From: Escherichia phage vB_EcoM_011D4 | Direction: 5' to 3' (one strand) | Sequence record: MT478991.1 | Length of the DNA stretch: 64,000 nt | In this document: positions 14,050-62,106 of the stretch, piece by piece | How the letters are laid out: each line of letters opens with the position of its first letter | Position numbering within the stretch: position 1 is the first letter of the stretch | Translations under genes and position numbers: made by a program | The notes under the pieces: model-generated | What the model was told of the DNA's origin: nothing | Database searches by the model: none | Seen by the model: the letters and a program-made list of their open reading frames with translations, nothing else

Positions 14050-14084
14050 GGGAGTATCTTACTACTCCCTTAATCCGGTGTCAA
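14050..14084 (-). promoter_or_regulatory. PeSL-type early promoter: TTGACA-17-TAAGAT with GGGAGTA/TACTCCC stem-loop
   Basis: On minus strand -35 at 14084..14079, -10 at 14061..14056, perfect 7-bp inverted repeat 14050-14069; upstream of 13264..14022. Confidence 0.6.
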
Positions 14085-14091
14085 CTACTTT

Positions 14092-14304
14092 TTAATTTTT
14101 ACCCGCTCGTGCATTAATACGCATTTTCTGCATAGCCATGATCTGGTTTACTGCTTCTTCTTTACGTTCTTGCGTGATAACGTGACCAGATTCCGCAAAC
14201 TCTCCAGAGACCTCTTCCACGATCTCGCGAACTTGAGAACGTCCAAAGATGCGGTTTCCTTCGTAGCTCATAAACTCTGTTACTACTTGCTCGATAGATT
14301 TCAT
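14092..14304 (-). CDS. hypothetical protein (70 aa)
   Basis: ORF track; GGAG RBS; preceded by PeSL. Confidence 0.55.
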   Translation of the reverse strand: MKSIEQVVTEFMSYEGNRIFGRSQVREIVEEVSGEFAESGHVITQERKEEAVNQIMAMQKMRINARAGKN

Positions 14305-14327
14305 GTGATTCTCCTTTCGTTTGGTAT

Positions 14328-14362
14328 GGGAGTATCTTACTACTCCCGTTTCTTTACGTCAA
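14328..14362 (-). promoter_or_regulatory. PeSL-type early promoter: TTGACG-17-TAAGAT with GGGAGTA/TACTCCC stem-loop
   Basis: -35 at 14362..14357, -10 at 14339..14334, stem-loop 14328-14347; followed by AAAGGAGAATCAC ATG. Confidence 0.6.
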
Positions 14363-14369
14363 CTGGTTT

Positions 14370-14612
14370 TTAGAAATTTTTCGCTTCTTCTTCGGTCATC
14401 ATAACCGCGCATTCGTGCATAACTTTGAAAACCGGATCAATCATGTCGAATGCTTCGCGAGACAGTTTACGAGAAGCGATTTTGATTGCTTCAACGTCTT
14501 CTACTACAGGAACAAAAACAGTTTTCAGTTCATCGAGCACGGCAGCTTCTTTTTCATTCAGGAAGATTCCAGCGTCGTACAGTGCAACTTCGATAACATT
14601 AACTTTAACCAT
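14370..14612 (-). CDS. hypothetical protein (~80 aa)
   Basis: Refined ATG at 14612 with GGAGG RBS (track start 14675 is a TTG extension that runs into the promoter). Confidence 0.55.
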   Translation of the reverse strand: MVKVNVIEVALYDAGIFLNEKEAAVLDELKTVFVPVVEDVEAIKIASRKLSREAFDMIDPVFKVMHECAVMMTEEEAKNF

Positions 14613-14640
14613 TTTTATTTCCTCCAGTTCGTTTCGGTAT

Positions 14641-14675
14641 GGGAGTATAATACTACCGATGACCTTTGGCGTCAA
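14641..14675 (-). promoter_or_regulatory. PeSL-type early promoter: TTGACG-17-TATTAT with short AGTAT/ATACT stem
   Basis: -35 at 14675..14670, -10 at 14652..14647. Confidence 0.5.
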
Positions 14676-14886
14676 CTGCTTTTTTATTATTTTCGTGAAA
14701 ATTTTTCGTTGCCTCTAGGTTCTTTTCGACCTTCATCCATTCCGCGTATTCTTGCGCGGCTACTTTCGGATTTAGTCCGTCTTCGTACATTGCATCGAGT
14801 AATTCTTCGTCGGTGGGCTTATACCCTAGATAAGCCTCCACCTGATTTTTCCAAATTTTATACCAGTTCATATTATCACCAATCAA
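14653..14886 (-). CDS. hypothetical protein (77 aa)
   Basis: ORF track. Confidence 0.45.
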   Translation of the reverse strand: MIGDNMNWYKIWKNQVEAYLGYKPTDEELLDAMYEDGLNPKVAAQEYAEWMKVEKNLEATKNFHENNKKAVDAKGHR

Positions 14887-15148
14887 GAGCGCGTGTCTCT
14901 GCGTCTTCCCATGCTTGATCCATTACAGCCTTAAAAACATACTCTAGAGTATCATCTTTAGAGAATCCGAAGACTTTAGACGGAATATCTTCGATTGCTA
15001 CTCCCGCAACTTCTGCATTACGCGCTTGGCAATAATGCAACTCTAAGTTATCGAGATAGCGACCGCCTAATTTCTCCATATCATCCCAGCATTTCCAGTA
15101 ACCTACTTTATCTGCAATTGCTAACACTTTGCTGTTTTTGTTGCTCAT
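14876..15148 (-). CDS. hypothetical protein (~90 aa)
   Basis: Refined ATG at 15148 with AGGAGAATCAAAG leader (track start 15238 is an extension). Confidence 0.55.
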   Translation of the reverse strand: MSNKNSKVLAIADKVGYWKCWDDMEKLGGRYLDNLELHYCQARNAEVAGVAIEDIPSKVFGFSKDDTLEYVFKAVMDQAWEDAETRALDW

Positions 15149-15179
15149 CTTTGATTCTCCTTTTGTTTGGGATGGGTGT

Positions 15180-15208
15180 ATTATGCAATGATGGATTTGT
15201 GAAGTCAA
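15180..15208 (-). promoter_or_regulatory. early promoter TTGACT-17-CATAAT
   Basis: -35 at 15208..15203, -10 at 15185..15180; immediately downstream of the terminator at 15214-15248. Confidence 0.5.
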
Positions 15209-15213
15209 CAACT

Positions 15214-15248
15214 TTTTAAAATAAAAAGCCGACCACAAGGATCGGCTT
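15214..15248 (-). terminator. rho-independent terminator (AAGCCGA-loop-TCGGCTT + TTTTTATTTT)
   Basis: Near-identical hairpin to the plus-strand terminator at 5325; on the minus strand followed by a U-tract, just after the stop of 15258..15653. Confidence 0.7.
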
Positions 15249-15257
15249 AATAATCAG

Positions 15258-15653
15258 TTACTTACTAAATTTCTTTTTGGCTTCGTCTACTGCATGAGAT
15301 GCCAGTACCGCTGCCGCATGTGCACTTTTATCTGTGTTGCAGAGAACACCCAGATAAACATCACGCCAAAGTTTAATCATCTCGTAGATCATATCAATAT
15401 CATTTTCTTGTTTGTTGGCGATGCTATTCGTTGTTATCTGGTAAGGTAACGGCTTAATCTGTACTGGTTCCGCCATCGGGCTAATCGGTTTCGGATCAGT
15501 CATAATAGGTGCTGTTGTGTGTGGTGTTTTCCATACGCCATTATTCCACGGTTTAATCGTTGTATCGTAAAGTTTATAAGGATTTTTGTCTGGGTCAACC
15601 ATCCATGCATGATGAGTACCCAAACCATTTGAAGTGATGCGTCGTTCAGTCAT
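15258..15653 (-). CDS. hypothetical protein (131 aa)
   Basis: ORF track. Confidence 0.55.
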   Translation of the reverse strand: MTERRITSNGLGTHHAWMVDPDKNPYKLYDTTIKPWNNGVWKTPHTTAPIMTDPKPISPMAEPVQIKPLPYQITTNSIANKQENDIDMIYEMIKLWRDVYLGVLCNTDKSAHAAAVLASHAVDEAKKKFSK

Positions 15654-17869: not shown

Positions 17870-17883
17870 AATGTATTCCCTCT

Positions 17884-17905
17884 AAGAAAGGCCGCTTTGC
17901 GCGGC
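17884..17905 (-). terminator. possible weak terminator (GGCCGC-loop-GCGGCC, short U-tract)
   Basis: 6-bp GC stem after the stop of 17915..18241; only TTTCTT follows on the minus strand. Confidence 0.35.
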
Positions 17906-17914
17906 CTATGTTGA

Positions 17915-18255: not shown

Positions 18256-19257
18256 TTAGTAATGGCTAAAACCTTCGGTTACATCTTCAACCACATAGTA
18301 ACGATGACAGCGCATTTTGGCATTCGCATAATCTTTCGGAATACTTACAACGTGACGAGGATCAACTTTGCATTTAATGATTCGGCCTCGTCCACCGCCA
18401 TAGTGTGGAATATAGTGTTTCGCTGCAACGTGGAGGCCATTAGAGCAAGTGCGATCATCATCTGGGTCAACGTCTTTACGCTTCATTTTAACCGTGCGCC
18501 CTGGGCTATTATCAAACGTATGAGTAAAGAAATCTTTATAATCAACATCAACACGTTTCCATGCATAGAAACAACCATCTTCCCCGATCTCAATGTCGTT
18601 GTGTTCTAAGAAGTCAAACAGACGATCTACCGCCTTACGGCTAGGGTTTTTCTTGCACTTCTCAAAGAAGTTCAGATAGTGCGTATATGGCTTATTCTCT
18701 TTAATAGACTCAACAACTCGACGAGTCAGATTATTATCAAGAACAATATTATGATAATACACAATACCATTTTCGATACGGAAAGCGCCGTGATAATATA
18801 CTTCAACCGCTTTCTTAATGTCAATCAGCGTAATTGCTTTAATAAAATCATTCTGCTTAACTGCTTCCAGTGCTTCCTTAAAGTTAACATGTGATGGATC
18901 AGCAGTATAAACAATGTCACCGCATGTAATAGTAATAAACTTAGTTGAGGCTATGGCTACGATTTTTGAGGTAGTAGTCACGGGCTTTTTTGCGCGTTCA
19001 CCACCTTTTCCTTTACTTGTTTTACGGCGTGCTTTACGTTTTTCTAGTGCCTTGCGACCTTCCGCTACTGCGTCTTTCTGAATCAGTAATACACGGGAGG
19101 CAGTACGACGAGATACCCCAAATGCTGCCGCAAGTGCTTCGCGGGTAGTAAACTTACCTTCGCCCCACTGTTTAGCCAGTTTGATTTGTTTTTCAGAATC
19201 CAGGCATTGAACGTTACGGTCAGAGACGGTGATTTTTGCTTTAGTCATAGTATTCAT
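18256..19257 (-). CDS. rIIB: rIIB protein
   Basis: C-terminal identity to T4 rIIB (KAVDRLFDFL..NDIEI.EDG.FYAWK...FDNSPG..VKM.R..V..DD.TCS.GLHV...VVSIP.DY..AKMR...Y.VVEDVTE.F). Confidence 0.88.
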   Translation of the reverse strand: MNTMTKAKITVSDRNVQCLDSEKQIKLAKQWGEGKFTTREALAAAFGVSRRTASRVLLIQKDAVAEGRKALEKRKARRKTSKGKGGERAKKPVTTTSKIVAIASTKFITITCGDIVYTADPSHVNFKEALEAVKQNDFIKAITLIDIKKAVEVYYHGAFRIENGIVYYHNIVLDNNLTRRVVESIKENKPYTHYLNFFEKCKKNPSRKAVDRLFDFLEHNDIEIGEDGCFYAWKRVDVDYKDFFTHTFDNSPGRTVKMKRKDVDPDDDRTCSNGLHVAAKHYIPHYGGGRGRIIKCKVDPRHVVSIPKDYANAKMRCHRYYVVEDVTEGFSHY

Positions 19258-19309
19258 TCCTCTATTAGTTGGGCGACTATCGCCGCCCGATTCACATCAT
19301 TATAACAGA

Positions 19310-19441
19310 ATTATTTTGCTTCGACAACCTTGCGGATTGTGCGGTCTGATACATTATAGATTCGTGCCAGTTCGCCTTTAGTCAAGCCGCGAGCGTATTG
19401 TTTACGGATGGTTTCTTTCTGGATAGCGGTCAGTTTAGTCA
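19310..19441 (-). CDS. small HTH protein (43 aa) resembling the rIIB N-terminus
   Basis: Below the ORF-track size cutoff; ATG at 19441 with GAGGTGA RBS; MTKLTAIQKETIRKQYARGLTKGELARIYNVSDRTIRKVVEAK resembles the rIIB N-terminal segment (...GVS..T.RRVL..AEEAK). Confidence 0.4.
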
Positions 19442-22226: not shown

Positions 22227-22250
22227 ATAAGTCAACCTTTTGTTTTCGAT

Positions 22251-22285
22251 GGGGACATTATGATATATCCCCTATCTGGTGTCAA
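22251..22285 (-). promoter_or_regulatory. PeSL-type early promoter: TTGACA-17-CATAAT with GGGGA/TCCCC stem
   Basis: -35 at 22285..22280, -10 at 22262..22257; A-rich tract upstream. Confidence 0.5.
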
Positions 22286-22293
22286 CAACTTTT

Positions 22294-22593: not shown

Positions 22594-22613
22594 TATTAAA
22601 TCCTCATAAAAGA

Positions 22614-22655
22614 AAAGGGAGACTCCCATTATAGAGAATCTCCCTTTTATGTCAA
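22614..22655 (-). promoter_or_regulatory. PeSL-type early promoter: TTGACA-16-TATAAT with 9-bp AAAGGGAGA/TCTCCCTTT stem-loop
   Basis: -35 at 22655..22650; TATAAT at 22633..22628 lies in the hairpin loop; directly after the gp39 stop. Confidence 0.6.
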
Positions 22656-22658
22656 GTG

Positions 22659-24482
22659 TTATGATTGCATCCAAATTTTGCGCTGATCTGCATCTTCACT
22701 ATAGAGCAAATCGAATAGCTCTTTATAGTTTTCCGGCAACGTGATGATTTCCATTACAGGATCGTTGATCACGCGATGATAATCTGATTCTGTAAGCGAT
22801 GCTAACCCTTTGATATATCGAATGCTATAACCTTTGATATTATCTCGGTCGTTCTCAAAATCTTCTAGGTCATAATACCATCGAACATCATTACCTTTCT
22901 TTTGTTCCGCAATGATAATAGGTGTTTTGATAAACCGGATTCGTCCATCTTCGAACAATTCAGGCCAACGAGCAAAGAAAGAAATCAGACTAGGTTTAAT
23001 AGACCCGATCCCGTCAGTATCAGCGTCTGTCATAATCGCAATATTTTTGTATTGCATAACTTCCAGCGCATCAACACCAAATTGCAAACCAGTGATCGCC
23101 ATGATGTTAAAAATTTCGGCGTTCTTAACGATCTTTGCCTCTGGTTGTTCCCACGTTGTAAGAGTTTTACCTCGCAACGGGAAACCGCCATGTAAATCTT
23201 GATCACGTACAGAGATCAGATAGTTGATCGCGGAATCACCTTCCGTCAAAAACAGGGTAGTTTCTGCGTCAGTTCCAATAAGGTTAGCTTTAACGTGTTT
23301 TGCTACCTTAGCCCGTTTTGCTGCCTTTGCTGCCTTAGTCGCTGCCGCTTTATCTGCTGCCTCTTTGCGTGCCAGGACTACAGCAATAATAGGCATGATA
23401 ATGTTTTCTTTCTTCGCAATGACTTTAGCCAGCTTTTTAAAATCAAGATCAATATGACGCTTGATATCACCAGTTGGATTAGTCAATCGTTCTTTTGTCT
23501 GTGAATCAAAACGGAGGTTTGGCAATTCACGAACAATAAGAATACAGGTCAATCCAGACTTAACCGCAGCTTTAGTAACATCAACCTTATATTCTTTCTT
23601 GATTCGTTTTACAATCTCTTCACAAAGATCATCTGTCACGTAGTCTACGTGTGTTCCCCCGTTTTTGGTAAACAGACCATTAGCAAATGATACTGATTTA
23701 AAACCTTCACCTTCAACCGCAGGAACTAGGGCAAGTGAAAAGTTTTTATCTTCAATGACAAACGGATCATCATTGTATAGTTTAGCATAATCCTTGAACT
23801 TACTAACAATACGTTTACCATTAAACTTAAACGTGATCTTAGGAAATATTACGCTCAATGATTGCAGACGATCATGAACAATATCTAAAACAGAGTTGTC
23901 CATCATATAACCTTCGAAGTGGTCGAAGTCTGGGCAAAATGTAACCTTTGTTCCCTTCAATTTTGATGGTTTCGATGACCATGTGATATTTTCAGCACCG
24001 TTTGTACATTGAACGGTCATTTCTGTTTCGCCGTCACAGGTCACACCAGTAAACCAATCGCTAAAGAAATTTGACAACGACGACCCCACACCGTTCATCC
24101 CTTGCGTTAGTCGATTTGTATCATCAAAGTTAGACCCTGCTTTTGTTCGTGTCCATGCGGCTACAGGTTGCGGAATCTGCGTGCCCTCTGGGGTAGTAAC
24201 CATATGTTGAGGAATACCGCGACCATTGTCTGTTACCGTAACAATATTGTTTTGGATATCGACGCTAATCACATTGGCAAATTCAAAGTTAGTGCGGATC
24301 GCCTCGTCTACAGAGTTGTCGATGATCTCATCAATGATTTTAACCAGTCCTGGAACATATGAAATTTTTGTCCATTTACCGAACAGGAAACGTTGATGTT
24401 CTTCGTAAGTTGTTGATCCTATATACATTCCTGCACGCTTAAGGACATGTTCACGATCAGATAAAATGCGAAACTCACTCAT
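22659..24482 (-). CDS. 39: DNA topoisomerase II large subunit gp39 (GyrB-like ATPase), fused single-chain form (607 aa)
   Basis: Strong identity to T4 gp39 (HVLKRAGMYIGS, GLVKIIDEIIDNSVDE, DNGRGIP, GMNGVGSS, KNGGTH, LTEGDSAI); continuous ORF, no split into 39 + 60. Confidence 0.93.
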   Translation of the reverse strand: MSEFRILSDREHVLKRAGMYIGSTTYEEHQRFLFGKWTKISYVPGLVKIIDEIIDNSVDEAIRTNFEFANVISVDIQNNIVTVTDNGRGIPQHMVTTPEGTQIPQPVAAWTRTKAGSNFDDTNRLTQGMNGVGSSLSNFFSDWFTGVTCDGETEMTVQCTNGAENITWSSKPSKLKGTKVTFCPDFDHFEGYMMDNSVLDIVHDRLQSLSVIFPKITFKFNGKRIVSKFKDYAKLYNDDPFVIEDKNFSLALVPAVEGEGFKSVSFANGLFTKNGGTHVDYVTDDLCEEIVKRIKKEYKVDVTKAAVKSGLTCILIVRELPNLRFDSQTKERLTNPTGDIKRHIDLDFKKLAKVIAKKENIIMPIIAVVLARKEAADKAAATKAAKAAKRAKVAKHVKANLIGTDAETTLFLTEGDSAINYLISVRDQDLHGGFPLRGKTLTTWEQPEAKIVKNAEIFNIMAITGLQFGVDALEVMQYKNIAIMTDADTDGIGSIKPSLISFFARWPELFEDGRIRFIKTPIIIAEQKKGNDVRWYYDLEDFENDRDNIKGYSIRYIKGLASLTESDYHRVINDPVMEIITLPENYKELFDLLYSEDADQRKIWMQS

Positions 24483-24572: not shown

Positions 24573-24581
24573 GTATATGAC

Positions 24582-52337: not shown

Positions 52338-52379
52338 ATTTGATTCTCCTGTAAAGTTGTATCTCGTCTTGATGAATAT

Positions 52380-52408: not shown

Positions 52409-52412
52409 GCAT

Positions 52413-52961: not shown

Positions 52962-53500
52962 AGGTCGCGATATAGTACATTATGAAAATGAGAACTTGCA
53001 TTACCAATATTGTAGATAATAAATTCTTCATCCGGCGCTTGCGCTACAAATTGAGTATGAGCAACCGCCACAACCTTAAAAATACGATCCGTGATCTTGT
53101 GTTTAATTTCTGCTCCTACTTCCATAGGAACATATTCATTTGTTTCTGTTTCAGTCGCAAAACAGCCATCTTCTTCATAAGCACGAACAAATCGGTCGCA
53201 ATCAGTACGCTTAACAAATTCAAGAGTATATAATTCTCGTGAATTGTCGGTATAGACCAATACAGAATTATTATGATAGCGAATCACATACAGGTTATTA
53301 TCATCGTCAATTACGCAAAAGCTACGGATTCCTTCGCCTTGACTCCAGCAGACATTAACCACCGTTCCTCTAATAAAAAAACTTTCCTTTAAATTAAAAC
53401 TAGCCAATGTGCTAGCGTGCATTTTAACAACAACACCATCGCCAATTTCCAGTTTACGAAGTTTAACTTCTTTGCTCAGTACACAAAACATCATCATCAT
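52958..53500 (-). CDS. hypothetical protein (180 aa)
   Basis: ORF track; GAGAGG RBS. Confidence 0.55.
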   Translation of the reverse strand: MMMMFCVLSKEVKLRKLEIGDGVVVKMHASTLASFNLKESFFIRGTVVNVCWSQGEGIRSFCVIDDDNNLYVIRYHNNSVLVYTDNSRELYTLEFVKRTDCDRFVRAYEEDGCFATETETNEYVPMEVGAEIKHKITDRIFKVVAVAHTQFVAQAPDEEFIIYNIGNASSHFHNVLYRDL

Positions 53501-53529
53501 GTTGTCCTCTCGTTGTTTTCGATGTGAGC

Positions 53530-53557
53530 ATTATACATTAGCTAATCAGGTTGTCAA
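53530..53557 (-). promoter_or_regulatory. sigma70-consensus promoter TTGACA-16-TATAAT
   Basis: -35 at 53557..53552, -10 at 53535..53530; immediately downstream of the terminator after nrdD. Confidence 0.55.
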
Positions 53558-53565
53558 CACCCCAA

Positions 53566-53596
53566 AACGAAAAAGCCGACCCTTTCGGATCGGCTG
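53566..53596 (-). terminator. rho-independent terminator (AGCCGA-loop-TCGGCT + TTTTT) after nrdD
   Basis: Same stem sequence as the terminators at 5325 and 15214; U-tract on the minus strand. Confidence 0.65.
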
Positions 53597-53600
53597 AAAA

Positions 53601-55463
53601 TTACATGTGCTTAACGCGGTTTACCATCTCGGAGTGTTTCCCGTGGTTAAATGGACGCAGATCAACAGATCCAAGATATCCACTAACGCGGCGGATAACA
53701 TTCATCTTTTCCAGATTGTCGTTGCCGCAATCAGGACAAACAAAACCAGACTCGGTCGCTCTCATTTCCTTATTAGATCCGCATACATGACATACATCAG
53801 AAGGAGTATTAACACCGAAGTAGTGCAATTTATCCATTGCATAGTCTACTACAGTTTCAAGACCTTTCAGGTTGTTTTTCATGTCTGGGAACTCAACATA
53901 AGAGATCATGCCACCGGACGCCAGCCAGTGATAATCTTTCTCAAAGTCGATTTTCTCAAATGGTGTGACTTTCCGGTCTACGTCAAGGTGGAATGAGTTG
54001 GTGTACCAGTCTTTATCGGTAGCACCCTTAACAATACCAAATTGCTCTCTGTCCAGTCGATTAAATCGATAGCAAAGGCTCTCGGCTGGAGTACCGTAAA
54101 GACTAAACCCAAGTCCGGTTTCATCCTTCCATTTTTCAGTATAATGACGCAGGATTTTAAGAATATGTTTACCGTATCGCTGCGCATCTTCCGAATCAAA
54201 CGGATGAACACCAAACAGGACGCTCAATACCTCATGCAAACCAATATACCCAAGAGAGATACTAGCGCGACCATCTTTCAGCACTTCCAAAATTTCATCG
54301 TTTTGATGAATACGGAAAAATGCACCTTCTGTATACAGCACCGGAGCAACATTGGCTTTAGCCCCTTTTAAAGCGTCTACGCGACTCATGAGCGCATCAA
54401 AGCAAATAGGCATACGATTAGCTAGCTCTTGTTCGAATAGCTCAATTCTGCGCATTACAGACGCTTTACCAGCACGACGAGCGGCAATAAGGGCAATACG
54501 CGGAAGATTCAGAGTCACAACACCTAAGTTATTACGTCCGTCTAATACTTCTTCGCCTTTCTCATTATGCCACACACCCAGGAAGCTACGACAACCCATC
54601 GGGCTAACCGGAACACTAGATCCGGTGATACTACGGTTATTCTTCGCAGAGATATAATCAGGGTAAAGACGCTTACTAGAACATTCCAATGCAAGTTGCT
54701 TAATGTCGTAGTTCGGATCTTCCGGTTTAAGGTTTAATCCTTCTTCTAAGAACATCACCAGCTTAGGAAACACCGGAGTTATACCATCTTTACCTAAACC
54801 TTTAGTTCGAACTTTCAGGATCGCTTTCTGAATCAGTTTTTCTTCCCAGCTAGTACCCATACCAAAGGTTAAAGTCACAAAAGGCGTTTGACCGTTGGTG
54901 GAGAACAAAGTGTTGATTTCATATTCCAACGCTTGATACCCGTCTAAAGTTTCTTTTTCTGTCTTCTCTTGTGCATAGAGAGTATCAGCTTTGATTCCGT
55001 AGGTTTCGGCATCAGCAAGGTGTTTATGATATGTTTTCTCAACGTATGGCGCTAAAACCTGATCGATGTTTGCAATTGTGGTCCCGCCATATTGATGACT
55101 TGCCACCTGTGCGATAATTTGAGCGGTTACAGCACAAGCAACGCCGATTGATTTCGGACTTTCGATTTGTGCGCTACCCAATTTAAAACCATTCTCTAAC
55201 ATGTCTTTGAGATTAACAAGACAGCAGTTAGTAAACGGCATAGCGGGTGCATAATCCATATCATGATAATGAATATCACCGTCTACATGCGCTTTATAGA
55301 TGTGCTCAGGTAACACGGTTTTAGCAATCTGTTTAGACACAGCACCAGCAATCAGATCTCGACGTGTCGGGAATGTTCGCGCGTCTTTGTTCGCGTTCTC
55401 TTTACTTACTTCGTTTTCTTTACCCGTTGCGATCTCTGTAATGTCTTTGATTAGTTTTTCCAT
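53601..55463 (-). CDS. nrdD: anaerobic ribonucleoside-triphosphate reductase NrdD
   Basis: 620 aa; C-terminal glycyl-radical motif RVSGYLG and zinc-ribbon CHVCGS..CPDCG; continuous ORF. Confidence 0.95.
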   Translation of the reverse strand: MEKLIKDITEIATGKENEVSKENANKDARTFPTRRDLIAGAVSKQIAKTVLPEHIYKAHVDGDIHYHDMDYAPAMPFTNCCLVNLKDMLENGFKLGSAQIESPKSIGVACAVTAQIIAQVASHQYGGTTIANIDQVLAPYVEKTYHKHLADAETYGIKADTLYAQEKTEKETLDGYQALEYEINTLFSTNGQTPFVTLTFGMGTSWEEKLIQKAILKVRTKGLGKDGITPVFPKLVMFLEEGLNLKPEDPNYDIKQLALECSSKRLYPDYISAKNNRSITGSSVPVSPMGCRSFLGVWHNEKGEEVLDGRNNLGVVTLNLPRIALIAARRAGKASVMRRIELFEQELANRMPICFDALMSRVDALKGAKANVAPVLYTEGAFFRIHQNDEILEVLKDGRASISLGYIGLHEVLSVLFGVHPFDSEDAQRYGKHILKILRHYTEKWKDETGLGFSLYGTPAESLCYRFNRLDREQFGIVKGATDKDWYTNSFHLDVDRKVTPFEKIDFEKDYHWLASGGMISYVEFPDMKNNLKGLETVVDYAMDKLHYFGVNTPSDVCHVCGSNKEMRATESGFVCPDCGNDNLEKMNVIRRVSGYLGSVDLRPFNHGKHSEMVNRVKHM

Positions 55464-55475
55464 TGTATCACCTAT

Positions 55476-55497
55476 GAAAAAGCGGGATTTCTCCCGC
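55476..55497 (-). terminator. rho-independent terminator-like hairpin (GCGGGA-tttc-TCCCGC + TTTTT) just upstream of the nrdD RBS
   Basis: 6-bp stem and U-tract 8 nt before the AGGTGA RBS of nrdD; could equally be an attenuator. Confidence 0.5.
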
Positions 55498-55507
55498 TCG
55501 TTGATAG

Positions 55508-56002
55508 TTATTTTACCAATTCTGCTAATTCTTTTTCTTTAGCTTCTAGTTCAGCTTTAAGCTGTTTAATCTCTTGTCGCTTCTTATTAGCGGCTTCCTG
55601 CTTACTATTTCGGATAACCTGATCTAGATACAATTCCCAATCCTGAATATTTTTGATAATGTAGCCGTCAACATTAATTGGTCGGAGATTCAGTACAGCT
55701 TCCAGTTTAGTTGCAAAAACTTTAATTGCTGGGGTGAAGTATTCATATTCGTTATCTTCAAACCAATAACCTAGACTTGCATTCTCAATACGAAGATGAA
55801 GTTTAAGATCAAGGTCTTTATCATCGGTATATAGGTCTTTTACACACCCCATAGAATTAACCACAACTTTAAAACGAATTTTATCTACACCACCAAAAAC
55901 ATCTTCAAGAATATCAGCAATTGAGCTATTAGCGCAAGATTGGTCGCTGAATGCGTCAAGGTTTTCTTTAGTTACAGTATACCAAACATCTTGTACCCAC
56001 AT
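55508..56002 (-). CDS. paralog-family-like protein with C-terminal coiled coil (164 aa)
   Basis: MWVQDVWY...YWFEDNEYEYFTPAI and KKRQEIKQLKAELEAKEKELAELVK tail. Confidence 0.55.
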   Translation of the reverse strand: MWVQDVWYTVTKENLDAFSDQSCANSSIADILEDVFGGVDKIRFKVVVNSMGCVKDLYTDDKDLDLKLHLRIENASLGYWFEDNEYEYFTPAIKVFATKLEAVLNLRPINVDGYIIKNIQDWELYLDQVIRNSKQEAANKKRQEIKQLKAELEAKEKELAELVK

Positions 56003-56026
56003 AATATAATCCTCTCGTTGTTAAGT

Positions 56027-56060
56027 GGGAGTATTATAGCATACTCCCTTCGCATGTCAA
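56027..56060 (-). promoter_or_regulatory. PeSL-type early promoter: TTGACA-16-TATAAT with GGGAGTA/TACTCCC stem-loop
   Basis: -35 at 56060..56055, -10 at 56038..56033, stem 56027-56048; leader AGGATTATATT ATG. Confidence 0.6.
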
Positions 56061-57235
56061 GCACTAACTTTTTTCTTTACTGCTTTCACCTTCTGGCGAA
56101 TTGCTCGAATCTCTTCGATCTCTTTTTCAGTCTCTTTAACAATTTCTTTGCGATTCTGAATATCTGTATCTAGATTATCATCAAGTTTAGGCAGCATGTC
56201 AATCAAGAACTTTTTAAAGTCTTTCAGGTTTCGGATAACAGCACCTTCACCCATTACCGCCACGCCTACACCATCCGGCAGGTCGCCAAACAGTTTAACC
56301 AGTTCAGACAGATGATCATGATCTTCTAGTGCTTCTTCCGGTTCAGATGGCAGTCCAACAAAGTAATAACGTTCATCATTGCTGATCAGGTGATACCAGC
56401 AAAGCCCAAAAGATTTAGGAGTATATTCTACACCACCAACTTCAACTGCGTCAACACTTCCGAAAGAATCTACTTTAGTTACCTTAAATCCATGTTCCAG
56501 CGTTTTAATAATTTCAATAACATGACTAGATACGGTTTCAGTATTAAACCAATGAGGCAAATTATGTGGATTTGGCTTGTATCGTTCGCCTACTTTAAAT
56601 CTCTGACCACGCTCTTGCATACGGACATATTCAACTCGCGTGATTTCCGCGAAGTATTCAAATTCGCTACCGTCAAACAAGCAATTCCATTGATCACAAA
56701 AACGATCCGCCTTGACGGTTTCACCTTTCGCGGTGATCATGGTAGCCGATCCATGAAATTCTTCTTCAACCAAAAAGCCATATTCGACAAAATCAACAAG
56801 TTTCATGGCTTCTTTATGCTCTGGGTCATGCTCTCCCCAGAATCGCTTAAATTCTTGCAAACCTTCTGGGGTAAACGAATAACATTTACCTTTTTCAAAG
56901 TAAGTCGGCATTGCATCCTCTTTCTTGTTCATCGCTTCGTATGCCTCTTTTGAGATACGTTTAAAGTATTTGCGCTCATTGTGCATAATCATAGTAGACC
57001 AATAATAAACGATATCCTCAGCGGAATAAACTACATCTCCAGCTTCAATAGTAATAACATGACCGTGGTCATCTTTTTCTAATACTTTAAAGCCCTTTTC
57101 TACGATTTCAGCAACCCGAATATGACCACGGCGCGAAGCATCGGTCAGAATAATTGAATAGCGAGAAAAGTCTAGAAACTCATCTTTACCACCTTCACGG
57201 AATGCATAGTAATGACCTTCAAAGAATTTAGCCAT
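56057..57235 (-). CDS. paralog-family protein (three tandem domains + helical tail, 392 aa)
   Basis: Repeated ...GFKV.....G......ERKYFKRI / SEFEYFAEI / DERYYFVGL modules. Confidence 0.6.
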   Translation of the reverse strand: MAKFFEGHYYAFREGGKDEFLDFSRYSIILTDASRRGHIRVAEIVEKGFKVLEKDDHGHVITIEAGDVVYSAEDIVYYWSTMIMHNERKYFKRISKEAYEAMNKKEDAMPTYFEKGKCYSFTPEGLQEFKRFWGEHDPEHKEAMKLVDFVEYGFLVEEEFHGSATMITAKGETVKADRFCDQWNCLFDGSEFEYFAEITRVEYVRMQERGQRFKVGERYKPNPHNLPHWFNTETVSSHVIEIIKTLEHGFKVTKVDSFGSVDAVEVGGVEYTPKSFGLCWYHLISNDERYYFVGLPSEPEEALEDHDHLSELVKLFGDLPDGVGVAVMGEGAVIRNLKDFKKFLIDMLPKLDDNLDTDIQNRKEIVKETEKEIEEIRAIRQKVKAVKKKVSA

Positions 57236-57260
57236 AATATAATCCTCTCGTTGTTTAGAT

Positions 57261-57295
57261 GGGAGTATCTTACTACTCCCGTTTCATCATGTCAA
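57261..57295 (-). promoter_or_regulatory. PeSL-type early promoter: TTGACA-17-TAAGAT with GGGAGTA/TACTCCC stem-loop
   Basis: -35 at 57295..57290, -10 at 57272..57267; near-identical to the copies at 14050 and 14328. Confidence 0.6.
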
Positions 57296-57858
57296 GCGTT
57301 AAATGACTTTTGGATCTCTTTCAGTTCAGCTACTTTATCTGCGCTATATTTTGCTTGATGTTCCATGCGCTTAATCTCACCTTTGATATAGGTTTCTAGC
57401 TTAGGTTTATTCTCAATCAAAAAATCTTTCAGGTCATCGGCATTTTTAAAGTATAGCTGATTATCAACGCTAAAATCTTCCAGCGTCAATGATACCAAAG
57501 AAGACTTCGCAAACAAGTTAATCAGATCTTCCAGCGATTCTTCTTTCTTAACTGGCTTCATTTCTTCAAACTGCTTTTTAGTGATACGCTTAAAGTATTT
57601 GCGCTCGCTGGCATCAATCATGATTGATGCGCCCTCATAATCATGAGTTTCTACCAAATACACTTTACCCATAACATTAACAGTCAGAACTTTAAAGCCC
57701 TTGTGAAGCACACCATACAGGAACTTGTTATGTTGTGGATAGCGTTTAACAAATTCCTCTGCGGACTCAGCATTACGGAAAGTGTAATAACGACCTCGTT
57801 CAAAAACAGCATCATTTGAAGACTTAGCCGGATACAATTTATACGTTTTCTGTACCAT
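57292..57858 (-). CDS. paralog-family protein (one domain + helical tail)
   Basis: Refined ATG at 57858 with AGGATTATATT leader; ...GFKVLTVNVMGKVYLVETHDYEGASIMIDASERKYFKRI. Confidence 0.6.
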   Translation of the reverse strand: MVQKTYKLYPAKSSNDAVFERGRYYTFRNAESAEEFVKRYPQHNKFLYGVLHKGFKVLTVNVMGKVYLVETHDYEGASIMIDASERKYFKRITKKQFEEMKPVKKEESLEDLINLFAKSSLVSLTLEDFSVDNQLYFKNADDLKDFLIENKPKLETYIKGEIKRMEHQAKYSADKVAELKEIQKSFNA

Positions 57859-57872
57859 AATATAATCCTCTA

Positions 57873-58145
57873 TCATTTCACTAATTGAACAGCACGGAAC
57901 AGAATGCGCTCACACGGAAGCAGCATAAATTCCCAACGCGGATCAAAGTCTTTAGCGGTATACGTTTTCCCATCAACCGAGATTTCACTTACATAACCAA
58001 CAGGTGACACTTTAAGAACAGTAAACCCATTCTTGATGACTTCGTAGGTATCTTTCACCCCTTCGTATTCATCATCTAAGAAGTCTTTATGTGCTTGCTC
58101 AGATTTAAAAACATAGGCCACACCGGATTTAAACATCTTACGCAT
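57873..58145 (-). CDS. paralog-family protein (single domain, 90 aa)
   Basis: Refined ATG at 58145 with AGGAGAATCAACA leader; track start 58205 extends into the promoter. Confidence 0.55.
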   Translation of the reverse strand: MRKMFKSGVAYVFKSEQAHKDFLDDEYEGVKDTYEVIKNGFTVLKVSPVGYVSEISVDGKTYTAKDFDPRWEFMLLPCERILFRAVQLVK

Positions 58146-58170
58146 TGTTGATTCTCCTTCTTGATTAGAT

Positions 58171-58205
58171 GGGAGTATTTTACTACTCCCATTTCTTATT
58201 GTCAA
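58171..58205 (-). promoter_or_regulatory. PeSL-type early promoter: TTGACA-17-TAAAAT with GGGAGTA/TACTCCC stem-loop
   Basis: -35 at 58205..58200, -10 at 58182..58177. Confidence 0.6.
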
Positions 58206-58208
58206 CTA

Positions 58209-58682
58209 CTATCTTAATCTTTGTATAAATTGTTTCTTATACTTCTTCGTGATCTCTTCTCTTGTATCAGCGTCACAATAATCGAAGCCTTCTGCGTCCA
58301 TAATAGCAACCATCTCCGCGCGTGTCAAGCGTGAAAATCGTTTTACTTTATCAACAGCATATTGAGGATGTAAATGATTGTTGGTGTAGTCTCCTTTGAT
58401 GTAATTAACATAGTTTGTCGCCCAAACAACGAAATCAGCACCTAAAGCACCAACACCAAACCGTTTAAAGTCTCCGGTCAACGATCCTTCTAGGCGGTTG
58501 CAACACGAATGAAGCAATCCCCTTACGCGGCCTTGCCCTTTACCATCTAGATCGTGGTCGTGGTCAAGATGGTTTTTGCTCATATCCTCAAAAAGTGGCA
58601 ATTGACAAAGGGGGCAAATGCCCCCCTGTTTTTCGAATAGTTCTTGTTTGTACTCTTTAGCACTCTTAGCAGTCAGTAACAT
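58209..58682 (-). CDS. 49: recombination endonuclease VII (gp49)
   Basis: Refined ATG at 58682 with GGAGGGTGA RBS; strong identity to T4 endo VII (MLLT.K, GKC.ICQ, NHLDHDH.L.G...G.VRGLL...CN..EG). Confidence 0.92.
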   Translation of the reverse strand: MLLTAKSAKEYKQELFEKQGGICPLCQLPLFEDMSKNHLDHDHDLDGKGQGRVRGLLHSCCNRLEGSLTGDFKRFGVGALGADFVVWATNYVNYIKGDYTNNHLHPQYAVDKVKRFSRLTRAEMVAIMDAEGFDYCDADTREEITKKYKKQFIQRLR

Positions 58683-58706
58683 AAATTCACCCTCCAAAGA
58701 AGGTAT

Positions 58707-59000
58707 TTAACCATGAATCTTGTTTTTGACTACAAAGGATCGGAACTCATCAAAGCCACCAATATAATCACCATCATAGAAAATCTGCGGCATGGTGGCA
58801 ATAACTTCTACCCCTGCGCGATCCTGAATATCGGCAATGATAGAATCAATCTTTACGGGGCGACCGTTTTCGTCAACACCATCATTAACCGGAATGTAGA
58901 TGTAAGGGATCTTACGCGATTCACAAAGGCGCTTTGCATTCTGGCAATACTTACAGTTGTAACCTTCAAAACCAAAAATTTCTACCATATTATACCTCAA
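58707..59000 (-). CDS. nrdC: glutaredoxin/thioredoxin NrdC
   Basis: C.YC.NAKRL and MPQIF.DG..IGGFD motifs shared with T4 NrdC. Confidence 0.8.
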   Translation of the reverse strand: MRYNMVEIFGFEGYNCKYCQNAKRLCESRKIPYIYIPVNDGVDENGRPVKIDSIIADIQDRAGVEVIATMPQIFYDGDYIGGFDEFRSFVVKNKIHG

Positions 59001-59809
59001 TCTACGTTAGTTACATAAACTTCTTGCGTATCAGAAGACTTGCCACCTGAACGGTCTAGGCAATAGGTCTTATTCAACAGGACGCAGTTTAAATCATTCC
59101 GCTTGATAAAGTCAAGAAGATGATCGTTTACCTTTCCCTTATGATGCGTGACATTACTGATACCAAACTGAAAACCACGCGCCATAATAGATTCCACCCA
59201 CCGATAGAATTTAATCTCTTCCTCGTCACTCCAGAACTTATTATATTCCGCAGAAGTGATAAGGTACGGCGGGTCCAAATAAACGAAATCACCTGGCAAG
59301 ATCTCGATCTCGTCATAACGACCAGACGTAAAACTGATTCGACCGTCTTTGTTTTCTTCCTTAAAATTCAGGACACGCTCTACCGCGTTTTCGTTAAAAG
59401 TCCGGCGACCAAAATTAGCATTAAATTCGCCCTTTCGGTTATGGCGGTTAATGTTGCTAAAACTGTGCTGAATCAACACAAACAGCGATAGCGGATCTGG
59501 ATTCTCGTTATACTTCTTACGGAATGCCATGTAAGCGTCTTTATCATCACGAGACAAACCATTTTCGGAAATAATCCGATTGATTGTAGAAACCGGATCA
59601 GGACACGCATCAATGGCCTTGTAAGCGTCAATTAAACGATGGTCATAGTCATTAGCCAGCACATCACCTTCGACGTACAGAGACACGCTCAAACCGCCAC
59701 AAAAGGCATCAACAAAGCGGTTATAGTGCTTAGGGAAATACTTACTAACACCTGGCAATAGCTTTTCCTTATTGCCAGTATAGGGAATTAAACCTAATGC
59801 TTTCTTCAT
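58997..59809 (-). CDS. dam: DNA adenine methyltransferase (Dam-type N6-MTase)
   Basis: N-terminal SAM-binding F.GG (DAFCGGLSV) and catalytic DPPY motif; 270 aa versus T4 Dam 259 aa. Confidence 0.88.
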   Translation of the reverse strand: MKKALGLIPYTGNKEKLLPGVSKYFPKHYNRFVDAFCGGLSVSLYVEGDVLANDYDHRLIDAYKAIDACPDPVSTINRIISENGLSRDDKDAYMAFRKKYNENPDPLSLFVLIQHSFSNINRHNRKGEFNANFGRRTFNENAVERVLNFKEENKDGRISFTSGRYDEIEILPGDFVYLDPPYLITSAEYNKFWSDEEEIKFYRWVESIMARGFQFGISNVTHHKGKVNDHLLDFIKRNDLNCVLLNKTYCLDRSGGKSSDTQEVYVTNVD

Positions 59810-60240
59810 TATCCCTTCCTCAAATAAGTTCGCTCAATCTCTACCAGTTCGAAAAAATCTTGCCAGTCGCAAGGAAAATTGCAGTTTCCGAAATGATCCT
59901 CTTTGTAAAGTTCTTTACCGGATGGCAGCTTAATATCTGTTACGCTGTAGTATCCGCAACAATCGCAATCACCCTCTGTATATTCTGTTTTGGTAGGAAT
60001 ATCCATCATTGCCAGATACAAAGGCACATCGTCTTGCTCAAAGTTCATGTAACCTTCATGGTCGAATGAAACAAAGTTATCATCACCACCGAAAGGGATA
60101 TAATGGTCATAATCTGTTACAGGTTGACCGTGTAATTCCCATTCTACAATTTTAACATTACCGCTAAACTTGATACCCATAATTTCAACAATAAAATGAG
60201 TATCGTCAATGTAAATCTTACCAGGAGTTGGATAAACCAT
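59809..60240 (-). CDS. hypothetical Cys-rich protein (143 aa)
   Basis: ORF track; CDCCGYY...CNFPCDW cluster. Confidence 0.5.
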   Translation of the reverse strand: MVYPTPGKIYIDDTHFIVEIMGIKFSGNVKIVEWELHGQPVTDYDHYIPFGGDDNFVSFDHEGYMNFEQDDVPLYLAMMDIPTKTEYTEGDCDCCGYYSVTDIKLPSGKELYKEDHFGNCNFPCDWQDFFELVEIERTYLRKG

Positions 60241-60250
60241 TATATAATCC

Positions 60251-60547
60251 TCATATCTCAGAGAATAGAATCTCTGTTAGCTTCACTGACTGCTCTCTGA
60301 ATGTTAGCGTATACTCGAAAGGAAAGTCAACACCCAATTTCAAAAGAGAATAGCCTACCGCCTCTTTATGCTTATCGGTTAGGGCGATCCTAACCAATTC
60401 CCGTTGAATCTCTTTAGGCGGTGAATGGATAGTAACACGGGTATCATGTAATGTCCAGTCACCATTACGAATCAAGATTAACGGTTTATCGTCATTAAAG
60501 ATCACCGACCCCTTTCCGGTCGGTGAGTGTTTTATACTAATCATCAA
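60251..60547 (-). CDS. hypothetical protein (98 aa)
   Basis: ORF track. Confidence 0.5.
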   Translation of the reverse strand: MMISIKHSPTGKGSVIFNDDKPLILIRNGDWTLHDTRVTIHSPPKEIQRELVRIALTDKHKEAVGYSLLKLGVDFPFEYTLTFREQSVKLTEILFSEI

Positions 60548-60758
60548 ATTCTAAGAAATATTCTGGAACGATATAACCGTTAAAGTCATTGCACTTATAA
60601 AAATGTGGTGCATTTAATGCTGGATGAGCGTTTGTAAAGAGTTTACCCTCTAGAAACAGAATGTAATTAATAGGTCTTATACCGACAGAATCAGGGTCTA
60701 ATCCTTTTTCTCTCAGTTCAGCCAGCGTTAAAACTCGTCCAGATCGTAACTTAGCCAT
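60537..60758 (-). CDS. hypothetical protein (73 aa)
   Basis: ORF track. Confidence 0.45.
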   Translation of the reverse strand: MAKLRSGRVLTLAELREKGLDPDSVGIRPINYILFLEGKLFTNAHPALNAPHFYKCNDFNGYIVPEYFLEFDD

Positions 60759-61044
60759 GATTTACCCCCAATTCATCAAGATTGTGTCGCAGCATTTCAG
60801 AGTATTTTTCTACTTCCTTAATCTTAGTGTGGATCTCCACGATCTCATCTTCACTATCAGAAAGTTTAATGGCAATAGCGGTACTGCTTTTACCCGCTTT
60901 CATAGTCTCTTTCAGTTCAACCAACAGGTCCGCGTGTTTCAGTAGCAGTTCTTCACGTCGAACATAAGCGACGGTCAAAGCCTCATCAGCGATTTCTAAA
61001 GCATTTTCAGCGACACCAACAACCATTTTACGAGTAGACAGCAT
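60751..61044 (-). CDS. hypothetical protein (97 aa)
   Basis: ORF track. Confidence 0.5.
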   Translation of the reverse strand: MLSTRKMVVGVAENALEIADEALTVAYVRREELLLKHADLLVELKETMKAGKSSTAIAIKLSDSEDEIVEIHTKIKEVEKYSEMLRHNLDELGVNHG

Positions 61045-61058
61045 AAATTCACCTCACA

Positions 61059-61367
61059 TTATTTCACGTTAACGCCGCCATCAATCCAGCCGACGCTATT
61101 TGGTTTAACAGTTTTACCATAGGATGCATACTTAATCAAGCATGGTTTAACATCATTATCAAATCTTCCTAAGCGTACTCCCAAATCAGGAATATCCATG
61201 TAAGCGGCTTTATATCCCCATGTACAATATTCAGCATCAATCTCAACCGGACGGCCTTTAAAAGCATACACTACACCGTAACGGTCAACGATAACATAGC
61301 GATAGCCAGCCGGAAGATACACAGTTTCGCCGTAAACTTTAACTGGAGTAGCAGAAGAGATAAACAT
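61059..61367 (-). CDS. hypothetical protein (102 aa)
   Basis: ORF track; GTGAGGAATATATT ATG leader. Confidence 0.55.
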   Translation of the reverse strand: MFISSATPVKVYGETVYLPAGYRYVIVDRYGVVYAFKGRPVEIDAEYCTWGYKAAYMDIPDLGVRLGRFDNDVKPCLIKYASYGKTVKPNSVGWIDGGVNVK

Positions 61368-61401
61368 AATATATTCCTCACATCGTTCATTTGATGCGGC
61401 T

Positions 61402-61430
61402 ATTATAGGATAACCGCATTTTCATGTCAA
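61402..61430 (-). promoter_or_regulatory. sigma70-consensus promoter TTGACA-17-TATAAT
   Basis: -35 at 61430..61425, -10 at 61407..61402; short GCGG/CCGC stem around the -10. Confidence 0.55.
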
Positions 61431-61436
61431 CAGTTT

Positions 61437-61811
61437 TTAAAAATCTTCTTCCGGTTTATATCGACCGTCGTCTTCTTGTTTTGGGCTGAATCCGGTATGT
61501 TTGCGCGGCTTCGCTTCCGGTTTACCCGCAATCATCAAACCAAAACATTTCAGCCCCTTATAACACATAACAATATAAACTACTGTCCACGTTATAGGCC
61601 AGATGATTGCGGCAATACAAAATGCTCCTGTATCGACCTCTTTCGTGTCCTTATCGAATCTGGCATACAAGCAGAATATAAGATACGAGATCATTGCACC
61701 CGTAGGCCAGATATAAAGCACATTAACAATATCTTGTGTTGTCACATTGTCCTCCTTACATGTCTTGCAGTGCGTAGAAGCATTTTTCTTCATAGTCATA
61801 GAAAATGTCAA
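61437..61811 (-). CDS. predicted membrane protein (start uncertain)
   Basis: Hydrophobic segments (ISYLIFCLY, FCIAAIIWPITWTVVYIVMCY); track start overlaps the upstream gene, true start probably internal. Confidence 0.4.
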   Translation of the reverse strand: MTFSMTMKKNASTHCKTCKEDNVTTQDIVNVLYIWPTGAMISYLIFCLYARFDKDTKEVDTGAFCIAAIIWPITWTVVYIVMCYKGLKCFGLMIAGKPEAKPRKHTGFSPKQEDDGRYKPEEDF

Positions 61812-62034
61812 AGTATGCTTTTTCTACATACTCGCCATTGATCCAAGCGGCAGTAACAATCAGGGTAGTCCAGTTAGATCCGCTCTCAACGGTAAAGGTT
61901 TTAATACCCAGCTTCACAGCAAGGTCACGCGCAAACTGGTCGCAACCACGGCAGGAAGTGATATTGGAAGTTTTGATTTTGATGCCACCGCGAGTTTTAG
62001 AAATTTCTACTTTAGCGAAAGACAGGTTGCTCAT
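61756..62034 (-). CDS. hypothetical protein (92 aa)
   Basis: Refined ATG at 62034 with AGGAGAATCAAA leader (track start 62109 runs into the promoter). Confidence 0.5.
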   Translation of the reverse strand: MSNLSFAKVEISKTRGGIKIKTSNITSCRGCDQFARDLAVKLGIKTFTVESGSNWTTLIVTAAWINGEYVEKAYFDIFYDYEEKCFYALQDM

Positions 62035-62077
62035 TTTGATTCTCCTTAAGAAAAGTGTGTTTCGTTTTGATGTGTGT

Positions 62078-62106
62078 AGTATAGGGGATACGCGATCCCC
62101 TGTCAA
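62078..62106 (-). promoter_or_regulatory. PeSL-type early promoter: TTGACA-17-TATACT with GGGGAT/ATCCCC stem-loop
   Basis: -35 at 62106..62101, -10 at 62083..62078; close relative of the 52380 copy. Confidence 0.55.

Follow-up and report, generated by a model that had tools for sequence, protein, structure and literature searches.

Promoter–stem-loop cassettes in the early region of Escherichia phage vB_EcoM_011D4 match the PeSLs of the RB49/phi1 group

The minus strand of a 64,000-nucleotide (nt) stretch of Escherichia phage vB_EcoM_011D4 (MT478991.1; the whole stretch is called the window here) carries sigma70-type promoters combined with stem-loops, raising the question of what these composite units are and whether they do more than start transcription of the next gene. 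A reading of the letters alone (the sequence-only reading) had likened them to the promoter-early-stem-loop (PeSL) cassettes of RB49-group phages, and this identification proved right: the architecture, the genomic positions and the sequence of the units match the PeSLs of RB49 and phi1. By nucleotide similarity, the window is a segment of an RB49-group Krischvirus genome. When 10 kb of it (52000–62200) served as query, 58 phage records matched, all of them Krischvirus (RB49/phi1 group), and the window is 97.7% identical to E26, 96.5% to Phi1 and 95.9% to RB49. Because the window itself comes from an RB49-group phage, the units are published PeSLs and not merely PeSL-like, a rediscovery rather than a new element. 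Very probably, each joins an early promoter to a stem-loop that acts on RNA arriving from upstream and serves as a linker for recombination.

Arbiol et al. (2010; PMC2839356) reported 52 PeSLs in phi1 and 51 in RB49, with five positional classes of stem-loop relative to the promoter and with gene 43 flanked by PeSLs. In their assays the PeSL206/205 promoter was strong (about 13,000 Miller units), and the stem-loop of PeSL211/210, a spacer-class hairpin moved out of its promoter context, lowered lacZ expression to much the same extent as did the rrnB T1 terminator. They proposed modular shuffling through PeSL-to-PeSL recombination and mini-circles, detected excised circles between neighbouring cassettes of RB49 and phi1 by PCR, and speculated on a recombination protein binding GGGG...CCCC. 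All five positional classes occur among the 18 units of the window that the sequence-only reading had singled out, named here by the first base of the -35 hexamer. Cassette 62106 is about 96% identical to RB49 PeSL211/210 over about 80 nt, including spacer, loop and leader, and its hairpin likewise lies between -35 and -10; PeSL206/205 and 192/191 have their counterparts in the GGGGATC class, and PeSL193/192 has its counterpart in the GGGAGT class. Genus, genomic positions and the order stop codon, AT tract, sigma70 pair, hairpin, Shine-Dalgarno sequence (SD) and ATG are shared with the published elements, as is the association with insertions and deletions of open reading frames (ORFs). The differences, of which none is essential, are that an 80-aa module (NEW14612) is present here and that ORF263 and ORF263.1 are absent.

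Earlier still, Nolan et al. (2006; PMC1524935) had predicted 51 early promoters in RB49, with a consensus reported in that paper to agree with 5'-end mapping. Thirteen of our 18 sites are orthologues of these promoters, and the hairpins of 22655, 29115, 53557 and 57295 (GGGAGTA) are in the TransTerm terminator list of the same paper, which kept promoters and terminators separate and did not describe the composite repeat or a role in recombination. The GEC-3S GenBank record also annotates these sites as promoters. The GGGAGTA cassette occurs in 5–9 copies in each of the 58 Krischvirus records; the rest of the phage collection yielded none, and a pattern scan of IMG/VR picked it up in three contigs only. 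In both searches it was confined to Krischvirus, with no sign of spread to other genera.

Transfer of the Phi1 annotation onto the window placed the tail-fibre genes gp34–37 and the holin gene t on the plus strand (401–10966), and about 98 early genes on the minus strand (~11000–63828), from ORF255 through rIIB/rIIA, gp43 and nrdD to ORF076. Intergenic DNA makes up 2154 nt (4.1%) of this early block.

All 18 hexamer pairs put forward by the sequence-only reading were found on the minus strand, 0–24 nt from where it had placed them; its coordinate was the final base of the -10 hexamer at nine sites, 6 nt past it at seven, and 14 and 24 nt past it for 22614 and 29063. The -35 hexamers start at 14084, 14362, 14675, 15208, 22285, 22655, 24572, 28546, 29115, 38165, 44980, 52408, 53557, 56060, 57295, 58205, 61430 and 62106, with clusters at 14.0–15.2 kb and 52–62 kb. 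Spacers are 16 or 17 nt, and every site scores 9–12 of the 12 hexamer consensus positions. The formula TTGAC(A/G)-16/17-TAnnnT fits most sites but fails for the -10 hexamers CATAAT (15208, 22285) and AATAAT (28546) and for the -35 hexamer TTGACT of 15208. We counted sites in 11002–63828 against dinucleotide shuffles. At 11 or more consensus positions the minus strand had 26 sites and the plus strand none, compared with 1.0 +/- 0.8 in shuffles, and 12 of the 26 reach into intergenic DNA, where their density is about 20-fold that in coding DNA; the motif is thus far from being equally frequent in coding sequence. At a loose threshold (at least 9/12) the counts hardly exceed those of the shuffles (62 vs 56, 75 vs 54, 50 vs 36). 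A profile built from the 18 sites, which is circular for those sites and served for the plus-strand check and for calling outliers, found nothing comparable on the plus strand and marked 24572, which sits inside ORF006.1, as an outlier (E=0.79). The sequence-only reading had spoken of at least 18 cassettes, and at least five more were found (19327, 34125, 35436, 40190 and 46007–46096).

Inside genes, 14 minus-strand sites reach at least 11/12 positions where about one is expected, well above chance. Near-perfect intragenic sigma70 promoters lie at 19713–19685, 21671–21643, 31889–31861 and 286–258 on the minus strand, with rIIA, ORF002, ORF021 and ORF247 as host genes, and two of them correspond to the RB49 early promoters Pe:2232 and Pe:12270 predicted in 2006.

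The units share more than hexamers. Seventeen of the 18 are intergenic and run from an upstream stop codon to a downstream SD and ATG, the exception being 24572, and on the minus strand each intergenic gap of 53 nt or longer bears such an element. The 20 nt upstream of the -35 are 72% A+T compared with 59.5% for the window (consensus aAaaaAgt.gTTGAC), and the common AT-rich tract ends in AAAAAGTTG. The conserved leader and ribosome-binding site (RBS) that the sequence-only reading described are both there, as ACnCCCATC followed by an A-rich run and as one of two RBS types per cassette; the GGAGAATCA type precedes 6 of the 18 cassette genes and 1 of 81 other genes. Paralogous copies share exact runs of 22–27 nt and are as much as about 96% identical over 80 nt, and the shared sequence covers spacer, loop and leader positions beyond the constraint of the promoter consensus.

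In the reading that we propose, each unit spans the gap between the stop codon of an early gene and the start codon of its downstream neighbour and comprises an UP-like AT tract, a near-consensus sigma70 pair, an ACnCCCATC start region, an A-rich leader, an RBS and a G-run/C-run hairpin. Early in infection, unmodified host RNA polymerase would read the sigma70 pair, which would launch a fresh early transcript for the downstream gene, and the hairpin would be a terminator or attenuator for RNA arriving from upstream. Since the units are dispersed direct repeats of 60–100 bp, phage homologous recombination could cross over between them, and such crossovers would delete, insert or swap the gene modules that they flank.

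Hairpins do accompany the promoters. One of -8 kcal/mol or better within 110 nt was present at 16 of 20 intergenic promoter-like sites, compared with 22% of intragenic ones and 11% of random windows (p=1.7e-4). Among the 18 cassettes 16 have a strong hairpin, and the ViennaRNA fold z-scores are mostly -2.3 to -5.4. The claim that most hairpins overlap the -10/+1 region was overstated, as 8 of the 18 lie over the -10 (14084, 14362, 22285, 22655, 56060, 57295, 58205 and 61430; five perfect Watson-Crick, three with G.T pairs). Of the rest, three are in the spacer (44980, 52408, 62106), two are T-tailed terminators upstream of the -35 (15208, 53557), two follow the -10 (24572, 29115) and one encloses the whole promoter (38165); the hairpin is degenerate at 14675, where only the 3' arm is left, and absent at 28546. 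The six GGGAGTA/TACTCCC copies described from the sequence are as reported, intact at 14084, 14362, 56060, 57295 and 58205 and degenerate at 14675, and 52408 and 62106 have stems of the GGGGATC/GATCCCC type, of which 22285 has a variant. Relative to the predicted start, the 3' arm stops somewhere between -13 and +1 in 11 cassettes; from this geometry, a 3' arm that ends at or before the predicted +1 would leave the hairpin out of the cassette's own transcript, so that only read-through RNA would include it. Among seven genomes (the window and six relatives) hairpin arms vary less (3.0%) than loops (10.4%) and flanks (7.7%; p about 0.006). Rfam gave zero matches at gathering thresholds over the whole window. 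Taken together, a role at the RNA level is well supported for the canonical terminators and no more than possible for the palindromes, and for the GGGAGTA class the support for termination is the TransTerm call only.

Four short intergenic gaps (17870–17914, 32262–32311, 47138–47177 and 55464–55507) look terminator-only, because they hold G+C-rich hairpins and no promoter. Within the coding sequence of ORF065, a 9-bp G+C-rich perfect hairpin, TCACCGACC...GGTCGGTGA (60502–60526), was flagged by the terminator scan on both strands.

Might the main role of the hairpins instead be post-transcriptional, to stabilise the 3' ends of upstream messages or serve in their processing, and sometimes to gate translation? 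Independent searches on each strand showed that the sense hairpin is more stable than the antisense one in 13 of 17 cases (p=0.004), as such a role would predict; the asymmetry, however, is due to the T-tailed hairpins, canonical terminators in any case. In the perfect palindromes the two strands are equally stable. The gating part turns on cassette 29115, before modB, where the sequence-only reading had seen the hairpin (its 29063) sequester the SD. GGAGG does lie in the 3' arm, but the hairpin is a T6-tailed terminator, its RB49 orthologue being listed as terminator modB<--56 (PMC1524935), and the SD would be blocked only in read-through RNA. Because the -10 is followed at once by the 5' arm, RNA from the cassette's own promoter would lack that arm; the predicted probability that the SD is unpaired is 0.00 in read-through RNA, where it is fully paired, and about 0.4 in RNA that begins at the predicted +1 of the cassette's promoter. 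On these folding predictions, translational control at 29115 would tell transcript origins apart and not act as a general switch, and only 1 of the 18 hairpins contains an SD. T4 gene e employs the same logic: according to a review, the ribosome site is closed off by a hairpin in the early transcript, and a late promoter has its start within that hairpin. In a like manner, 29115 has the SD in the 3' arm and the predicted start of its promoter inside the 5' arm; the internal promoter of gene e is late and its effect temporal, whereas 29115 has a sigma70 early promoter and a hairpin that is also terminator-tailed. Moreover, an alternative TATAAT 11 nt upstream at 29115 could yield a transcript that still includes the hairpin, and gating of the gene e kind would, by analogy, depend on which -10 is used. 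We therefore regard a mainly post-transcriptional role as unlikely.

The linker function was assessed by comparison with Phi1, OZ035808, LF73P4, KFS-EC, UPWr_E1 and SSG23, aligned through unique 14-mer anchors and the longest increasing subsequence. About ten whole-gene indels distinguish the window and these six relatives, and four of them have junctions inside cassettes. Two of the four show hybrid or chimeric cassettes. KFS-EC is without ORF059 and ORF060 (57258–58179) and has a single hybrid GGGAGTA cassette left, whose upstream flank comes from 58205 and whose leader comes from 57295. The NEW14612 module, which cassettes 14362 and 14675 flank, occurs in 31 of the 58 records and is absent from Phi1, KFS-EC, UPWr_E1 and RB49 (AY343333), and the single junction cassette of UPWr_E1 is a chimera of 14362 and 14675. 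In the other two events, relatives have an ORF263 module with its own GGGGATC cassette inserted at 14088–14096 (cassette 14084), and three relatives have an extra ORF and a GGGAGTA cassette inserted at 15171–15175, between the -10 and the RBS of cassette 15208. Of the remaining six indels, four are away from cassettes (ORF009.1, ORF051 and two KFS-EC insertions) and two adjoin one. A divergent patch (48–72% identity) adjoins cassette 57295, which is conserved to 95% or more in 55 of 58 records, and the module behind it is 80–90% identical in 31 of 56; a conserved cassette next to a variable module is, in such alignments, the pattern expected of conserved linkers. As these comparisons stand, the evidence for recombination rests on the hybrid junctions and not on indel counts.

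The two indels that adjoin a cassette have another cause. The one at 14710–14724, which at first seemed tied to the cassette, is a deletion within a gene, by which ORF265 has been joined to the end of a small ORF. A deletion of about 175–190 nt relative to OZ035808, LF73P4 and SSG23 took most of a small signal-peptide ORF, leaving an ORF265 (14653–14871) of 72 aa, compared with 53 aa in Phi1, whose fused frame extends across the -35 of cassette 14675 and into its degenerate 5' arm. The other, at 22647 and next to 22655, is an insertion: LF73P4, and it alone, has an HNH/AP2-type homing-endonuclease-like ORF (~10090–10690) between gp60+39 and cassette 22655, equivalent to 22647–22691 of the window. 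The 80-aa ORF of the NEW14612 module (14370–14612; MVKVNVIEVALY...) has no PHROG match.

Several observations weigh against units that terminate upstream RNA and link modules. Ten of 16 hairpins have no U-tract (tails such as AUCAAGAA) and are poor intrinsic terminators by standard criteria, the published terminator experiment covers one hairpin class only, and 28546 and 14675 are cassettes without an intact hairpin. No compensatory base-pair changes were found among orthologues in the seven genomes, where five one-sided arm changes preserve pairing and eight break it, and conservation of sequence and of structure is inseparable for that reason. Four of ten indels at cassettes, when 22% of gene junctions have a cassette, is not significant (P=0.17). 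Finally, frd.2, ORF059 and ORF060 (56057–58145) are tandem, goF-like paralogues (PHROGs 8944, 622 and 5347) with GGGAGTA cassettes before frd.2 and ORF060 and none before ORF059, so that some cassette copies may stem from gene duplication and not from mobility.

Some of these points would suit ordinary early promoters and terminators that overlap in short intergenic space, their likeness being functional consensus and crossovers incidental. Besides the indel count, the presence of an element in every gap of at least 53 nt is in keeping with this, and orthologous cassettes are positionally stable and nearly invariant in the seven genomes. Nor are ORFans preferred over T4-named genes. The claim that cassettes decorate exactly the genes non-syntenic with T4 did not survive: they precede 13 of 64 ORF-type and 5 of 34 T4-named genes (gp60+39, srd, modB, gp43 and frd.2; Fisher p=0.59), and most non-T4 ORFs have none. 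A preference for ORFans is reported genome-wide for the PeSLs of RB49 and phi1 and is undetectable within this 64-kb window. However, functional consensus does not account for the long exact runs and the roughly 96% paralogue identity over 80 nt at positions free of promoter consensus, the GGAGAATCA RBS travels with the cassettes, and hybrid and chimeric junction cassettes are seen directly. Mere overlap thus appears distinctly unlikely.

Least probable, and in our view very doubtful, is that the promoter-embedded palindromes (GGGAGTA-N6-TACTCCC, GGGGATC-N4-GATCCCC) are primarily double-stranded DNA sites for a dimeric phage protein, whether a repressor shutting off early promoters or a recombination-targeting factor, rather than RNA terminators: their operator-like position on spacer and -10, their lack of U-tracts and, unlike terminator-type hairpins, of sense/antisense asymmetry, their conserved arms without compensatory changes and the speculation of Arbiol et al. 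fit such sites, but at least five unrelated arm sequences at five promoter-relative positions have only G-run/C-run complementarity in common, the PeSL211/210 hairpin lowered lacZ outside promoter context, the degenerate copy 14675 persists in several phages, and no candidate protein is known. PeSLs that act on upstream RNA and link modules remain the reading that we prefer.

The individual cassettes, all on the minus strand, are as follows. In the first cluster, 14084 (14023–14091) extends from the ORF264 stop codon to the ATG of an ORF262-like gene; it has TTGACA-17-TAAGAT and a GGGAGTA-N6-TACTCCC hairpin that ends at -1 (z=-2.8), and is the orthologue of RB49 Pe:158760. Cassette 14362 (14305–14369), before ORF264, combines TTGACG-17-TAAGAT with a GGGAGTA/TACTCCC hairpin, corresponds to Pe:159267 and is the right-hand boundary of the NEW14612 module. 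Before the 80-aa ORF, 14675 (14613–14680; TTGACG-17-TATTAT) retains the 3' arm TACTCCC and has TCGGTAG as its 5' arm (z=-1.7); the end of ORF265 overlaps its -35, and the degenerate form is also present in OZ035808, LF73P4 and SSG23. At 15208 (15149–15257), before ORF266, a T-tailed terminator (15248–15226) lies upstream of TTGACT-17-CATAAT, and the orthologue is Pe:159769.

Cassette 22285 (22227–22293), before ORF004, has TTGACA-17-CATAAT and a hairpin GGGGATAT/ATGTCCCC with one G.U pair (z=-2.6; Pe:2846). In 22655 (22594–22658), before ORF005, TTGACA-16-TATAAT is within a 15-bp hairpin with a T-rich tail (-23 kcal/mol, z=-5.4), listed in RB49 as TransTerm terminator ORF005c<--60plus39. The atypical site 24572 (24483–24577), before gp60+39, has TTGACA-16-TATGAT followed by a 14-bp hairpin (z=-3.4); it is inside the coding sequence of ORF006.1/gp39.2 and invariant in relatives. 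Before srd, 28546 (28489–28549; TTGACA-17-AATAAT) has a z-score of -0.8 and corresponds to Pe:8927. Cassette 29115 (29054–29122; TTGACA-17-TATTAT) has the hairpin GCCTCC...GGAGGC with its T6 run, and its orthologue is Pe:9496. Before gp43, 38165 (38105–38186) has TTGACA-17-TATAAT inside a 62-nt three-tier hairpin (-27.3 kcal/mol, z=-5.2; 0 of 200 shuffles fold as well). This gp43-promoter hairpin (38121–38190) reaches from the regA stop codon to about +7 and is invariant or nearly so in six relatives.

Cassette 44980 (44928–44985), before ORF038, and 52408 (52338–52412), before ORF053, both have TTGACG-17-TATACT, with spacer hairpins GCGGGGA/TCCCCGT (z=-2.3) and GGGGATC/GATCCCC; the latter is the orthologue of Pe:33349. 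At 53557 (53501–53600), before ORF055, a T-tailed terminator (53595–53574) lies upstream of TTGACA-16-TATAAT, corresponding to Pe:34495 and to terminator ORF055c<--nrdD. Cassette 56060 (56003–56065), before ORF057, has TTGACA-16-TATAAT and a hairpin GGGAGTAT/ATACTCCC (z=-3.2; Pe:36999). Before frd.2, 57295 (57236–57300) has TTGACA-17-TAAGAT and a GGGAGTA/TACTCCC hairpin (z=-3.2); it corresponds to Pe:38234 and to TransTerm terminator frd.2<--ORF059c and bounds the ORF059-060 module. Cassette 58205 (58146–58208), before ORF060, has TTGACA-17-TAAAAT and a hairpin ATGGGAGTA/TACTCCCAT with a 9-bp stem (z=-3.9; Pe:39144). Two more complete the second cluster: 61430 (61368–61436), before ORF068, with TTGACA-17-TATAAT and a 10-bp hairpin with one G.U pair (z=-3.9; Pe:42369), and 62106 (62035–62121), before ORF070, with TTGACA-17-TATACT and the spacer hairpin AGGGGAT/ATCCCCT (Pe:43045).

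Among the additional elements, 19327 (19249–19332), before rIIB, has TTGTCG-17-TATAAT and then a hairpin GGGCGGC/GTCGCCC. From uvsX to gp40, 34125 (34039–34130) consists of a promoter-like site in the 3' end of uvsX and a T-tailed terminator, 40<--uvsX of RB49. Cassette 35436 (35365–35441), from gp43 to ORF025, has TTGACA-16-TATAAT and then a 12-bp hairpin (-21.4 kcal/mol), and 40190 (40104–40195), from gp45 to gp44, has TTGACT-17-TATAAT and then GGGGAGT/ACTCCCC with a T5 run. The partly degraded element at 46007–46096, from a-gt.4 to gp47, has a 12-bp T-tailed terminator (RB49 ORF040c<--a-gt.4), a weak -35, TATAGT and a cassette-type leader, CATCGAAAAC...GAGAGGA.

Elsewhere in the window, the late-promoter motif TATAAATA occurs only twice, at 365 and 5476 on the plus strand, both intergenic and preceding gp34 and gp36. 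The distal tail-fibre subunit gp37 (7078–9996) has 80% protein identity to Phi1 with several patches replaced, likely a host-range difference. In the equivalent of 12700–15300, OZ035808 ('Krischvirus RB49') and the original RB49 (AY343333) differ in gene content, which on sequence comparison makes them different strain sequences in that hyperplastic region.

Beyond the RB49 group, the PeSL/PmSL elements of T4/PST and KVP40/nt-1 (Comeau et al. 2014; PMC4122927) are likewise promoter-plus-stem-loop linkers near indels and in hyperplastic regions; they differ in consensus (TTTACW or TTGYVH), in AT-richer stems and in a stem-loop that is usually upstream, and are thus analogues and not sequence homologues. 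Lambdoid 'morons' and the linkers of Botstein and Campbell are alike in that a gene has its own promoter and terminator and conserved linkers permit module exchange, but morons are not thought to move via their regulatory sequences, whereas here the regulatory cassette is the exchange homology.

Two extensions made in the sequence-only reading are unsupported as they were stated, namely exclusive marking of non-T4 genes and SD sequestration as a general switch. Whether promoter-embedded palindromes without U-tracts are terminators or protein recognition sites is a question of some weight: in the latter case a protein would switch off early promoters or direct recombination to cassettes. Few concrete mechanisms have been put forward for accessory-gene shuffling in T4-type phages, and PeSLs are among them. 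Two genomes underlay the 2010 case; the same hybrid-junction signatures are seen here in a further genome and six relatives, and with 58 Krischvirus genomes public the PeSL model is testable at the scale of the whole genus.

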